Part shown: positions 26,442 through 64,000 of the stretch, piece after piece | How positions within the stretch are numbered: the stretch's first letter is position 1 | Layout of the letters: each line of letters starts with the position of its first letter | Source of the DNA: Escherichia coli O127:H6 str. E2348/69 | Lineage (GTDB): Bacteria; Pseudomonadota; Gammaproteobacteria; Enterobacterales; Enterobacteriaceae | Reading direction: 5' to 3' (one strand) | Assembly: GCF_000026545.1 (NCBI RefSeq) | Contig: NC_011601.1 | DNA length: 64,000 nucleotides | The notes under the pieces: generated by a model | Database searches by the model: none | Told to the model about the DNA's origin: nothing | Seen by the model: only the letters and a program-made list of their open reading frames with translations | Position numbers and translations under genes: made by a program

Positions 26442-26516
26442 GTCCTCTTAGTTAAATGGATATAACGAGCCCCTCCTAAGGGCTAATTGCAGGTTCGATT
26501 CCTGCAGGGGACACCA
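26442..26516 (+). tRNA. argW: tRNA-Arg (anticodon CCU)
   Basis: 75-nt cloverleaf GTCCTCTTAGTTAAATGGATATAACGAGCCCCTCCTAAGGGCTAATTGCAGGTTCGATTCCTGCAGGGGACACCA; anticodon loop CTCCTAA; GGTTCGATTCC T-arm; encoded CCA. Confidence 0.9.
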
Positions 26517-26677
26517 TTTATCAGTTCGCTCCCATCCGTACCAGTCCGCAAAATCCCCTGAATATCAAGCCTTACGTATATTCACGGTTCGTCATGGTTC
26601 GCGTCAGATCGTTGACAGCCGCACTCCATGACGGGTAAAAAGTGGATAAAATAATTTTACCCACCGGATTTTTACCC

Positions 26678-27835
26678 ATGCTCACCGTTAAGCAGATTGA
26701 AGCAGCAAAGCCGAAAGAAAAACCATACCGCCTACTCGATGGTAATGGCCTGTACCTTTATGTCCCTGTATCAGGGAAAAAGGTATGGCAGCTTCGCTAC
26801 AAGATTGACGGTAAGGAGAAAATCCTGACTGTCGGAAAATATCCGCTTATGACTTTGCAGGAAGCAAGGGATAAGGCATGGACTGCGAGGAAAGACATCT
26901 CGGTTGGCATCGATCCGGTAAAGGCGAAAAAGGCTTCGTCTAACAACAATTCATTTAGTGCGATTTACAAGGAATGGTACGAGCACAAGAAGCAAGTCTG
27001 GTCAGTAGGCTATGCAACTGAACTTGCCAAAATGTTTGATGACGACATTTTACCCATCATCGGCGGTCTTGAGATTCAGGATATTGAGCCGATGCAACTG
27101 CTGGAAGTAATCCGCAGATTTGAAGATCGCGGTGCAATGGAGCGAGCCAACAAAGCCCGCAGAAGATGCGGCGAGGTTTTTCGTTACGCTATTGTCACCG
27201 GAAGGGCTAAATATAACCCGGCACCTGACCTTGCAGACGCCATGAAAGGATACCGCAAGAAGAACTTCCCGTTCCTTCCAGCAGACCAGATGCCTGCATT
27301 CAACAAAGCACTGGCAACATTTTCAGGAAGTATCGTATCGCTCATTGCGACAAAAGTTTTACGTTATACAGCCCTAAGAACGAAAGAGCTTCGTTCCATG
27401 CTATGGAAGAACGTCGATTTTGAAAACAGGATTATCACCATCGACGCCAGTGTGATGAAGGGACGCAAAATTCATGTGGTCCCGATGTCAGACCAGGTGG
27501 TTGAACTTCTCACTACGCTAAGCTCAATCACCAAACCAGTCTCAGAGTTTGTTTTTGCCGGGCGCAACGATAAGAAGAAGCCAATCTGCGAGAACGCGGT
27601 ATTGCTTGTGATCAAACAAATCGGCTATGAAGGTCTGGAAAGCGGTCACGGATTCAGGCATGAATTCAGCACGATTATGAACGAGCACGAATGGCCTGCT
27701 GACGCTATTGAAGTGCAACTGGCACATGCCAACGGCGGATCTGTGCGTGGGATTTACAACCATGCTCAGTATCTCGATAAACGCAGAGAAATGATGCAGT
27801 GGTGGGCGGACTGGCTTGATGAAAAGGTAGGGTGA
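26678..27835 (+). CDS. intS: Tyrosine recombinase, prophage integrase (IntS/P4-type)
   Basis: Immediately 3' of argW in the same orientation; ORF track 26642..27835, start taken at MLTVKQIEAAKPKEKPYRL; C-terminal catalytic R..HxxR..Y residues. Confidence 0.85.
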   Translation: MLTVKQIEAAKPKEKPYRLLDGNGLYLYVPVSGKKVWQLRYKIDGKEKILTVGKYPLMTLQEARDKAWTARKDISVGIDPVKAKKASSNNNSFSAIYKEWYEHKKQVWSVGYATELAKMFDDDILPIIGGLEIQDIEPMQLLEVIRRFEDRGAMERANKARRRCGEVFRYAIVTGRAKYNPAPDLADAMKGYRKKNFPFLPADQMPAFNKALATFSGSIVSLIATKVLRYTALRTKELRSMLWKNVDFENRIITIDASVMKGRKIHVVPMSDQVVELLTTLSSITKPVSEFVFAGRNDKKKPICENAVLLVIKQIGYEGLESGHGFRHEFSTIMNEHEWPADAIEVQLAHANGGSVRGIYNHAQYLDKRREMMQWWADWLDEKVG

Positions 27836-28065
27836 TCGACCTTAACAACTATCGAATAGCACAAAGACTTGCGGGCCAGTGCAAGGCGTTCTGTGTCTCA
27901 GTTTTGTCTAAGTGTTCTACTAAAACATAGTAAAATCGGTAACGGCTGGAAATCATTCAATACTCGCACTATCGAAAGTTCGCCAGCCAGCCGCAGCACG
28001 TTCTTGCATACGACGTGGCTGCGGCTTCCAACATTAGACAAATAACTCTTTAAATTGCTTTTAAA

Positions 28066-28251
28066 TTATTTCGTTTGAATGCCAGTAACAGGAAATCGTT
28101 TATATAGGGTTGATAGCCCAACGTTATAGATACGTGCAACATAACGCCGCGATTTCCCTGCCGCTATGAGCGCTCCCATCTGTTGCCACTGCTCGTCGCT
28201 AAACTTCGGTCTACGCCCACCAATCCGGCCTTTGGATCTGGCAATAGCCAA
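28066..28251 (-). pseudogene. Remnant of a serine DNA invertase (Pin/Hin family), C-terminal HTH only
   Basis: 61 aa ORF ...GRRPKF...ARIYNVGLSTLYKRFP resembles only the C-terminal DNA-binding domain of Gin/Pin invertases; no catalytic N-terminal domain present. Confidence 0.6.
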
Positions 28252-28256
28252 ACCAG

Positions 28257-28625
28257 CTAAAGTTCCGGGATGACAGGCCAGTTAACATGCTCAGGGTCGG
28301 TTGTTACATCAACAGCCTTAACCTGATTCTTATATAAAAGCCACGCCGAAAGTTTAGCTCTGTTGGCATCGCTGATTTCACCCAGCATCAGCTCTGTGCG
28401 CCAGTCGAGCATAATTGCATCAGCGGCGGACAGTAATCGCTGTCGCTCATTTTCAGCAGCCTGGATGAGTTGTTCATGAGTCGGTGGGGGATTAATAATT
28501 TCCATAGCCTCACTTCTGGTGATTGGCACAAGCCCTTCTTTGATAAAAGCATCCTGTGTGCCATACGCATCGTAGGCATATACGACGTTATTTTCATCTT
28601 TGTAATACTTCATCATTGTTATCAT
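28257..28625 (-). CDS. Tail fibre assembly protein (Tfa)
   Basis: 122 aa, Tfa-like sequence, immediately downstream of the tail fibre gene. Confidence 0.75.
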
Positions 28626-62019: not shown

Positions 62020-62077
62020 CTTGTGTTGGTCGCCAGAAAATGAAATTAGGCAGCAAACCACTTATTTGAGGTGAGAT

Positions 62078-62548
62078 ATGACAAAATCATGGAGCGTACC
62101 TTTTCCTGAATCAGAAACTGAACATGAGGGAATGCCTGTTTTCTGGAGATTCCAGGCGACAGTTGAAGAAGATGGAATCAAAATATTCGCACTTCAATAT
62201 ATAGCTTTTCATCAGACAGAGCATTATGCATGGTTGGTTCCTGCGCATTGGATTGTTAATTTTAAACCAGCACCAAATCAGTGGTTACAGGAATGGAAAC
62301 AAAAGAGAAATAGATATGCAATTAAGAAAGTAGCAAAAAATGCAGAAAGATCTTTTGCATTCCCAACGAAGAAACTTGCCATTGAAAGTTTATTGCGCCG
62401 AAAGAAATACCATTTAATGAGAATCAAACAAGATTTGGCTGTTGTATCAACTCTTGTTGATGGGATGAAGAATATTGATACATCAACACCAGATATTGAA
62501 TATAACTTTGGACACAACCAAGAAACAGAAAATTGGGTATTCTACTAG
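62078..62548 (+). CDS. Early-left operon hypothetical protein
   Basis: 156 aa, AT-rich, follows N. Confidence 0.5.
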   Translation: MTKSWSVPFPESETEHEGMPVFWRFQATVEEDGIKIFALQYIAFHQTEHYAWLVPAHWIVNFKPAPNQWLQEWKQKRNRYAIKKVAKNAERSFAFPTKKLAIESLLRRKKYHLMRIKQDLAVVSTLVDGMKNIDTSTPDIEYNFGHNQETENWVFY

Positions 62549-62594
62549 GCCGCATAGTCGGCCTTTATTTTTGGCATAAACAACAGAGGCTAAC

Positions 62595-62891
62595 ATGGGA
62601 TTTAAAGGTACTGAAGGTAAGTGGGAAATAATGATGGATGGGGATGAGATTAAAATCATCCAGGCAGACTCTCTTGAAAATGGCACAGGCTGGCGTTCGT
62701 ATATTGCAATCTGTGAGGAAGTTCAATGTATTGAAGATGCCAATCTAATAGCGGCAGCACCTGACCTTCTCGAAGCACTTCAGTTATTACTTAATCAATC
62801 CAAAAATAGAACAACGACAACATATCCAGAATGGTATGGAGCTGTTAATAAAGGTCTTGCAGCAATCAGAAAAGCTCTTGGGGATAAGTAA
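62595..62891 (+). CDS. Early-left operon hypothetical protein
   Basis: 98 aa ORF with AGAGG RBS. Confidence 0.5.
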   Translation: MGFKGTEGKWEIMMDGDEIKIIQADSLENGTGWRSYIAICEEVQCIEDANLIAAAPDLLEALQLLLNQSKNRTTTTYPEWYGAVNKGLAAIRKALGDK

Positions 62892-63079
62892 TGAAAGTAA
62901 AAATAACTGCTTCTAACACCAGTTTTATTAGTGTTGGTGATATTACAGAAGTAATAACAAACCATGATGGAACCCAAGTTATGTGGTCTGATCTTTGTAA
63001 AAGATATGAGCGAGTTAGTTGGTGTAAACTCGTATGGGGCGTCGAATACGAAGAAATACCTGAAATGCATGACGAATAA
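62891..63079 (+). CDS. Early-left operon small hypothetical protein
   Basis: 62 aa, start overlaps the previous stop (ATGA). Confidence 0.4.
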   Translation: MKVKITASNTSFISVGDITEVITNHDGTQVMWSDLCKRYERVSWCKLVWGVEYEEIPEMHDE

Positions 63080-63213
63080 GCACTGTGTATTCATTCCAAC
63101 GAGTGAATACACGGAGCAATGTCGCTCGTAACTAAACAGGAGCCGACTTGTTCTGATTATTGGAAATCTTCTTTGCCCTCCAATGTGAGGGCGATTTTTT
63201 TAACGGAGGATAT

Positions 63214-64000
63214 ATGAGTGAAGTAACAGATTTAGTTGTTATTGAAAAAGCAAATGCAATGACTGTATTTCAGTCTGCCGACCAGATTGAAGAAATCCTT
63301 CAAAAGGTTGAACGTGAAGTTATGTCCTTTGTGCCTGATATCACAACGGCAAAGGGCAGAAAGGAGATCGCTTCTCTGGCGTATAAAGTTGCGCAGACGA
63401 AAACATATCTCGATGGCCTTGGCAAAGACCTTGTTGCTGAACTGAAGGAAATTCCAAAGCTAATTGATGCCAACCGCAAGACAGTGCGCGATCGCCTTGA
63501 TGAGCTGAAAGCCAAGGCGCGCCAGCCTCTTACTGATTATGAGGAAGAACAGGCGCGGATTAAAGCCGAAGAAGAAGCTAAGGCAGCAGCTGAAGCTCTC
63601 GCAAAGCAAATTGAGTCTGACCATGAAATAGCGATTTTGATGGATCGCGAATTTGACCGCCAAAGAGAAGAGGCAAGACTCAAAGCGGAGCAGGAAAAGC
63701 GAGAGCATGAAGAACGCTTAAAAAGAGAAGCTGAAGAGAAAGCCAGAGCAGAAGCCGAAGCAAAGGCAAAAGCCGAAATTGAAGCAGCAGCAAGGCGAGA
63801 AGCAGAAGCTAAGGCCGCAGCGGAACGTGCAGAGCGTGAACGCATTGAAGCCGAGCAACGAGCACAGCGCGAAGCAAAAGAGGCAGCAGAACGAGCTGAA
63901 AGAGAAAAGCAGGCGGCAATTGAAGCAGAACGCCGAAAAGCACAGGAGGAGGCTGAACGAATCCGGCGCGAGGCTGAAGCAAAAGAGCAAGCCAGAATAG
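63214..64000 (+). CDS. Coiled-coil charged-repeat protein, 3' end beyond window
   Basis: ATG 63214 with GGAGGA RBS; frame 1 stays open to position 64000; E/A/K/R-rich helical repeats; absent from the ORF track because no stop lies within the window. Confidence 0.6.
   Translation, partial: MSEVTDLVVIEKANAMTVFQSADQIEEILQKVEREVMSFVPDITTAKGRKEIASLAYKVAQTKTYLDGLGKDLVAELKEIPKLIDANRKTVRDRLDELKAKARQPLTDYEEEQARIKAEEEAKAAAEALAKQIESDHEIAILMDREFDRQREEARLKAEQEKREHEERLKREAEEKARAEAEAKAKAEIEAAARREAEAKAAAERAERERIEAEQRAQREAKEAAERAEREKQAAIEAERRKAQEEAERIRREAEAKEQARI

Follow-up and report, generated by a model that had tools for sequence, protein, structure and literature searches.

In KplE1 (CPS-53), a cryptic prophage of Escherichia coli K-12, Panis et al. 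(2010, 2012) described a recombination module in which attP lies between torI and intS, and intS hence requires an autoregulated promoter of its own in attL (PMC2951348, PMC3509656). This promoter overlaps attL and is repressed by both IntS and TorI, the core sequence of the site has been published as CTGCAGGGGACACCAT, and the K-12 element is without a repressor (PMC2951348). The IntS-TorI module is common to phages HK620, Sf6 and CUS-3 and to many prophages at the argW tRNA gene (PMC2951348, PMC3509656). A second described system is Salmonella phage SEN34, which is mitomycin-inducible and plaque-forming, and joins lambda-like early genes to a contractile tail (PMC5261728); it is the type of the genus Brunovirus. 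The stretch analysed here, called the window, comprises 64,000 nucleotides (nt) of the chromosome of E. coli O127:H6 str. E2348/69 (NC_011601.1), and the element that adjoins argW in it brings these systems together. It is very probably a single temperate prophage of 43,314 bp, integrated in the 3' end of argW, in which a SEN34 (Brunovirus)-type virion module is combined with a lambdoid early region and a recombination module of the KplE1/HK620 type.

The element runs 5.8 kb beyond the end of the window, to torI and an attR core, and the sequence past position 64000 was read from the deposited source genome (window coordinate = L001 coordinate + 24000). The 38 kb of the window that were queried are 100% identical to three E2348/69 chromosome records. 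Transfer RNAs were called with ARAGORN, genes are those of the Prokaryotic Genome Annotation Pipeline (PGAP), families are from Pfam, PHROG and PADLOC, and the 76 coding sequences (CDS) of the element were compared by tblastn with lambda, HK97, P22, HK620, Mu, SEN34, vB_EcoM-611R5 (611R5 below), K-12 CPS-53 and a related prophage. The two ends of the element are made up as follows, positions outside the window being given as window equivalents.

26442-26516, + strand: argW, tRNA-Arg(CCT), the integration target (ARAGORN, PGAP)
26502-26516, + strand: attL core CTGCAGGGGACACCA, the last 15 nt of argW (L001 2502-2516), which with the next T makes the 16-nt KplE1 core (repeat search; core published, PMC2951348)
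26517-26677, + strand: P' arm of attL, overlapping the intS promoter (99% to K-12 attL, identical from 26604 onward)
26612-26617 and 26636-26641, + strand: intS promoter, -35 box TTGACA and -10 box TAAAAA (boxes and start site mapped in K-12, PMC2951348)
26678-27835, + strand: intS, tyrosine integrase (383/384 residues as in K-12 IntS; 98% to HK620 Int)
69542-69742 (L001 45542-45742), outside the window: torI, 73 nt before the attR core (PGAP)
69816-69830 (L001 45816-45830), outside the window: attR core CTGCAGGGGACACCA (source genome sequence)

A preliminary description of this DNA had started the prophage at 26442, which is essentially right, the true left boundary being the attL core at 26502-26516 inside argW. 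It had also placed an integrase directly after argW in the same orientation, and the IntS orthologue indeed adjoins attL on the strand of argW, separated from the tRNA gene by a 161-nt spacer and reading into the prophage. An excisionase and an attR were to be sought past 64000, and both are present: a TorI-type excisionase is the last gene before attR, and attR repeats the argW 3' end. When 50 kb were searched for repeats of the argW-derived core, exactly two copies were found, even with up to 2 mismatches allowed, against 0.04 expected by chance. Measured against the published core CTGCAGGGGACACCAT, attL agrees at 16/16 positions (26502-26517) and attR, outside the window, at 15/16.

The same description had recognised that the picture would change if a second integrase and att site stood just past the window. 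The locus would then hold tandem elements, a KplE1-like remnant giving intS and, apart from it, a lambdoid phage that has an integrase and att site of its own, and a DUF4942 gene fragment past attR is a sign of other mobile DNA at argW that could be read in this way. The source genome refutes the tandem arrangement, which we regard as extremely unlikely: it has one integrase and two copies of the core. Its annotation contains no second integrase between intS and torI, nor in the next 13 kb up to evgS, and no extra core occurs inside the element or in the following 13 kb at up to 2 mismatches. Moreover, both ends are of KplE1 type, torI and attR no less than intS and attL, and a relative at argW in MEI1A-0323, an unrelated Swiss soil isolate, has the same one-unit layout. 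Because no second integrase or att site intervenes before torI and attR, the element is taken as a single unit of 43,314 bp.

To the right of attR (L001 45984-50000 and L013) lie the DUF4942 gene fragment, the csc sucrose-utilisation genes, remnants of dsdX and dsdA, emrKY and evgAS. Where dsdC and the greater part of dsdX would be, the DUF4942 fragment and the csc genes are found instead; dsdA has a frameshift. In this strain argW serves as an insertion hotspot that has been used more than once.

The recombination module is almost that of K-12. TorI is identical to K-12 TorI at 66/66 residues, the attR arm is identical to that of K-12 up to the core, and the six substitutions that separate attL from that of KplE1 (99% identity) all lie upstream of the -35 box. 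The intS promoter boxes and the sequence downstream of them are unchanged, and by analogy the promoter would be regulated as it is in K-12. The likeness to KplE1/CPS-53 that the preliminary description had pointed out is borne out by IntS, TorI and attL alike and by the position of torI at the opposite end. Phage HK620 supplies the circular counterpart. In its GenBank record hkaC(TorI), the attP core and int follow one another on a single strand, and joining attR to attL of the E2348/69 prophage gives the sequence of this annotated torI-attP-int segment. In the circular phage the order would be PL operon, torI, attP, intS and the end of the late operon, with int still ending the leftward operon. 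In the prophage intS stands at attL, beside the tail-fibre end, and torI at attR, because attP sits between the excisionase and integrase genes. The preliminary description had implied that this was unusual in comparison with lambda; it is less so than was implied, as int closes the leftward operon in the circular phage, only the position of attP has moved, and the layout is published. The arrangement of integrase at attL and excisionase at attR, together with its regulation, is already known and not new, because Panis et al. described exactly such a layout (PMC2951348, PMC3509656).

The homology to argW extends beyond the core. The T-arm 16-mer of the tRNA gene, TTGCAGGTTCGATTCC, has an exact copy 20 nt upstream of torI (L001 45507-45522; window-equivalent 69507-69522, outside the window), 293 bp before the 15-nt attR core; in argW the two pieces abut. 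The final 30 nt of argW are thus present in attP, with the torI cassette dividing them. The split homology is also kept in K-12 KplE1 (L003 10776-10791) and in HK620 (L008 1677-1692), where the record annotates a putative cII box and an 'integration' promoter over the 16-mer. An excisionase cassette might have been inserted in an ancestral attP in which the tRNA homology formed one contiguous block. We consider this improbable and put it forward as speculation; if true, the insertion would account for the presence of xis and int on opposite sides of the crossover site in the IntS-TorI family. Alternatively, a regulatory site upstream of torI may include the 16-mer, which would then have been kept as a part of it.

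From the invertase remnant to cro (59517) everything is on the - strand, and the + strand carries cI, N and the early-left genes, which point toward 64000. The - strand genes after intS are, in order, a truncated invertase, tfa, tail fibre, baseplate, tape measure, tube, sheath, connectors, capsid, portal and terminase, and beyond the terminase come the lysis genes, two tRNAs, an HNH gene, Q, the nin genes, a helicase gene, O, cII and cro. The tail fibre and late operon are thus on the opposite strand to intS (tfa at 28257 through terminase at 49555, all -) and the immunity region and PL operon are distant, toward the window end (cI 59618-60331 and N 61636-62019, both +), just as had been described. 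The virion module contains the following.

28066-28263, - strand: remnant of a DNA invertase (Gin/Pin-type), C-terminal helix-turn-helix (HTH) only, catalytic domain deleted (PGAP pseudogene; Pfam HTH_7)
28257-28625, - strand: tfa, tail-fibre assembly protein of the short type, 122 aa (Pfam Caudo_TAP; 69% end to end with the 117-aa SEN34 tfa)
28622-29650, - strand: tail fibre, 348 aa, an intact open reading frame (ORF) (aligns from N to C terminus with the 381-aa SEN34 fibre; PHROG tail-fibre families)
29650-41037, - strand: contractile-tail module (PGAP names; 66-97% amino-acid identity to SEN34 in the same gene order; 94-100% to 611R5)
32696-33848, - strand: AT-rich insert in the baseplate operon, at a variable slot, with two genes that overlap (131 aa and 256 aa) (40% GC, flanks 48-55%)
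41027-47379, - strand: head and connector genes, namely DUF4054, major capsid (DUF2184), cement protein, DUF2213, head morphogenesis and portal (DUF1073) (PGAP; 79-96% to SEN34)
47379-49001, - strand: terminase large subunit (TerL 96% to SEN34, 100% to 611R5; PHROG terminase)
49004-49555, - strand: terminase small subunit (PHROG terminase families)

All virion genes from TerL to tfa have a collinear homologue of about full length in SEN34 (66-97% amino-acid identity, tblastn), and against vB_EcoM-611R5, the record of an E. coli phage, they reach 94-100%. Nucleotide comparison of the late region gives 95% identity to four vB_EcoM records and, over 76% of 22 kb, 83% to SEN34. The contractile-tail genes encode the baseplate wedge (DUF2612, baseplate J), spike, hub, tape measure, chaperones, tube (DUF3277), sheath (DUF3383) and neck terminator. 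Over the whole genome the nucleotide identity to Brunovirus does not reach the genus level (about 70% by the convention of the International Committee on Taxonomy of Viruses): only the late half matches, and megablast finds nothing of SEN34 in the early half.

The preliminary description had called the tail Mu/e14-like, which would make the prophage a lambda-Mu hybrid. This is correct for the fibre cassette: the invertase remnant, corresponding to positions 147-207 of 254 in the PHROG DNA invertase, is 60% identical to the C-terminus of Mu Gin, the identity of tfa to Mu U is 39%, and Mu S is matched by a short repeat in the fibre. The tblastn matches to Mu are limited to these three, however, and the tail itself is of SEN34 type; the head, sheath, tube, tape-measure and baseplate proteins have no match in Mu at E<=1e-4, the cut-off used, and all match SEN34 at 66-97%. 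Cassettes of fibre, tfa and invertase genes occur across many unrelated phages. A Mu-like virion module was accordingly rejected and must be judged very unlikely.

For the two genes inserted in the baseplate operon, tblastn gave no match in the reference phages and no Pfam or PADLOC family was assigned, the only hits being PHROG families of unknown function. The same slot is occupied by other genes in relatives, a DUF2335 gene in MEI1A-0323 and unrelated ones in 611R5 and SEN34. None of the isolated phages in the phage collection has the same junction between tail fibre and intS; the matches begin ~1.3 kb inside the fibre gene. Between the small terminase and the lysis genes, antisense to the late operon, is an ORF of 182 aa at 49575-50123 (+) whose PHROG family has no assigned function; the relative in MEI1A-0323 has the identical protein accession.

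The remainder of the element within the window is made up of lysis, regulatory, replication and immunity genes.

50422-51744, - strand: lysis cassette with lambda-type holin S, endolysin R and an overlapped spanin pair (S 99%, R 91% to lambda)
50585-50977 and 50422-50766, - strand: the spanins, Rz-like and LysC lipoprotein respectively (DUF2570, PHROG Rz-like)
51987-52142, - strand: phage tRNA-Thr(TGT) and tRNA-Asn(GTT), between Q and the lysis genes (ARAGORN; pair also in the MEI1A-0323 relative)
52197-52709, - strand: HNH-AP2 homing-endonuclease-like gene, between Q and the phage tRNAs (Pfam HNH_3 and AP2; PADLOC homing endonuclease)
52904-53422, - strand: late antiterminator Q (Pfam Phage_antitermQ, PHROG 943)
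53419-56190, - strand: nin region with ninH, rusA, DUF1364, ninF, ninX, ninE, Dam methylase and ninB (PGAP; 96-100% to HK97, HK620, P22 or lambda)
56264-57640, - strand: DnaB-type helicase (99% to HK97 P, 90% to P22 gp12)
57637-58524, - strand: O-like initiator with its own N-terminal half (five origin iterons inside the gene at 58029-58156)
58882-59517, - strand: cII and cro (cro 100% to lambda; cII 90% to HK97)
59544-59607, unstranded: OR1, OR2 and OR3 (zero mismatches to the annotated lambda operators)
59618-60331, + strand: cI repressor of lambda immunity (99% to lambda cI, 100% to HK97 cI)
60339-61134, + strand: two genes of 145 aa and 123 aa, co-oriented with cI, where lambda has rexA/rexB (PHROG families of unknown function)
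61325-61385, unstranded: OL3, OL2 and OL1 of the PL region (exact lambda operator sequences)
61636-62019, + strand: N antiterminator of HK97 type, 127 aa, intact (98% to HK97 N over its full length; Pfam N_peptide)
62078-64000, + strand: start of the early-left (PL) operon (PGAP, ORFs; homologues in HK97, HK620 and P22)

The lambdoid organisation is present, with divergent cI and cro, tripartite OR and OL, N and Q, O/P-type replication genes and a nin region, and a holin-endolysin-spanin cassette precedes the late operon. The early part consists of lambda/HK97 immunity, N and nut sites of HK97 type, a DnaB-type helicase and lambda S/R. Most of the mosaic that had been listed in the preliminary description reappears here: lambda immunity (cI, cro and all six operators), lambda S/R, an N that is not lambda's and belongs with HK97, a P22-like helicase that is closer still to HK97 P, and non-lambda spanins. 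Neither spanin matches lambda Rz or Rz1 by tblastn; one translation has an N-terminal transmembrane segment and the other an LSGC lipobox. Both nut-containing regions are 97-98% identical to HK97, the nutL region flanking N being 96.9% identical, and the origin iterons are five 12-nt-phased repeats within O (repeat search, family D1). Past the window the PL operon continues with cIII, kil, a Rad52-like recombinase, an HNH gene, ssb, abc2 and ea-type genes, and then torI.

The two genes that replace rexAB have no Pfam or PADLOC (defence-system) assignment. The second of them (123 aa) has a coiled coil, with a weak XhlA-like match, and a hydrophobic C-terminal segment, and the pair are candidates for exclusion genes expressed from the prophage. 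Cargo genes were searched for defence systems with PADLOC and Pfam (the baseplate insert, the rexAB-replacing pair, the 182-aa antisense ORF and the early-left ORFs), and only the orphan methylase and the homing endonuclease were returned. The HNH-AP2 gene is absent from the MEI1A-0323 relative. A second HNH endonuclease gene stands between the Rad52-like recombinase gene and ssb in the early-left operon (L001 41437-41904). In the host DNA upstream of argW, a chaperone-usher fimbrial operon (yfcO-V type) occupies positions 10848-17296 of the window on the - strand; it is ordinary core or accessory DNA of E. coli, unrelated to the prophage.

As far as its genes go, the prophage looks complete. 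None of the 76 CDS of the element has an internal stop, the full set of head, tail, lysis and replication genes that had been ascribed to it is present in this state, and stops or frameshifts are found in no essential gene. PGAP flags four pseudogenes in the element (tail fibre, N, invertase and a DUF551-like gene). Two of the flags are artefacts: the 'partial' tail fibre (28622-29650) aligns over its full length with the SEN34 fibre, and N, of which only the last 23 codons were annotated, is a full-length HK97-type N (61636-62019). The other two mark real defects, both non-essential, namely the reduction of the invertase to its C-terminal HTH and a partial DUF551 duplicate outside the window.

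Several points weigh against the reading of the element as a single temperate prophage with all its genes in order. The cores of attR and attL have 15, not 16, bases in common. Q resembles no reference-phage protein by tblastn and is assigned by family only. The cut invertase beside the tail-fibre genes attests some past deletion, and sequence methods are blind to missense, promoter and packaging-site defects. Furthermore, a full-text search of the literature (E2348 with argW or mitomycin) found no report of experimental induction, excision or particles for the argW prophage. It is possible, though on balance doubtful, that the prophage is grounded (cryptic), with the architecture as described and its ORFs intact-looking but the lytic cycle or infection no longer completed. 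Many E. coli prophages are in such a state, and the deletion next to the fibre genes, the four PGAP flags, the lack of an induction report in the literature searched and the strain-specific variants WP_0125789xx (cII, Dam methylase and a 113-aa tail-module protein) would all agree with it. The force of the flags is reduced by the two artefacts and by the non-essential nature of the remaining two; the essential genes are without stops or frameshifts, and the regulatory sites are exact copies of lambda OR1-3 and OL1-3.

The boundaries, att cores, identities of the recombination proteins and sites, operators, N/nut match, iterons and open frames come directly from the sequence, and the steps by which the prophage would be maintained and excised are drawn by analogy from KplE1 and lambda. 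In the lysogen, cI would keep PL and PR repressed, as described in the lambda literature, and intS would be expressed at a low level from the attL promoter under repression by IntS and TorI, as described for KplE1. On RecA-stimulated (SOS) cleavage of cI, N-antiterminated transcription from PL would reach torI, the last gene ahead of host DNA in the prophage. TorI, the pre-existing IntS and integration host factor (IHF) would then recombine attL with attR. Excision and circularisation would put intS downstream of torI again and so restore the torI-attP-intS continuity.

The two halves of the prophage differ in their distribution. Among 5,426 complete E. coli genomes, a half being counted as shared if at least 80% of it was covered, 47 have the left half, which runs from argW to the capsid genes, and the three E2348/69 records are the only ones with the right half, from the capsid genes to the end of the window. 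The combination of a SEN34-type virion and the IntS module at argW is therefore a recurrent lineage with interchangeable early regions, and the E2348/69 mosaic is strain-specific among the complete genomes. The MEI1A-0323 prophage has 14 proteins with the same RefSeq accession as in the E2348/69 prophage, among them capsid, small terminase, holin, endolysin and LysC. Its layout is the same (intS, fibres, late operon, Q with tRNA-Asn and tRNA-Thr, torI, DUF4942 remnant, csc) and its lambdoid early region is of a different immunity. The invertible pair of tail-fibre-assembly genes in MEI1A-0323 (L004 5659-6227) is 88.6% identical to the inverted pair tfaS/yfdK of K-12 CPS-53 (L003 5316-5884). 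There are hints that KplE1 may have decayed from a fibre-bearing phage of similar layout, with intS beside the fibre genes; these are weak because fibre cassettes are promiscuous.

The sequence is a deposited, annotated part of the reference enteropathogenic E. coli (EPEC) genome, and the element and its architecture are already known; the E2348/69 genome paper of Iguchi et al. (2009) reportedly catalogues the prophages of the strain. The significance of the analysis beyond annotation is therefore small. It corrects two automatic pseudogene calls, those of the tail fibre and N, and it documents a recurrent argW lineage of E. coli in which a SEN34-type myovirus virion is joined to interchangeable lambdoid early regions. 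The prophage would also offer the KplE1 recombination module in a natural setting, complete-looking and apparently under SOS control through lambda immunity.

Of the known systems, KplE1/CPS-53 of K-12 has the same integration site and core, with intS reading away from argW and torI last before attR. It is, however, a 10.2-kb remnant without repressor, virion, lysis or replication modules, whereas the E2348/69 element is 43.3 kb long with all of these, and the only sequence common to the two interiors is a 69-nt stretch of tail fibre. Coliphage HK620 (Lederbergvirus), with which Sf6 and CUS-3 are grouped here, is a functional phage with an Int 98% and a TorI 100% identical to those of the prophage and with several early-left and nin genes at 92-100%, but it is a P22-like podovirus with its own immunity, N, replication genes and virion module. 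Lambda and HK97 provide the control region: cI, cro and the six operators are those of lambda, S/R are of lambda type, and N, the nut regions, gp45, helicase, Dam, rusA and ninB are 97-100% identical to HK97. They differ in their virion genes, which have no similarity, in rexAB, which is replaced here, and in int, xis and attP, which are of another type and order. SEN34 likewise joins a lambdoid early region to a contractile tail and has a collinear virion module. Its integrase is only 25% identical and stands next to an AlpA-type excisionase, its immunity, replication and lysis genes and small terminase subunit are others, and the overall nucleotide similarity is far below that of members of the same genus.

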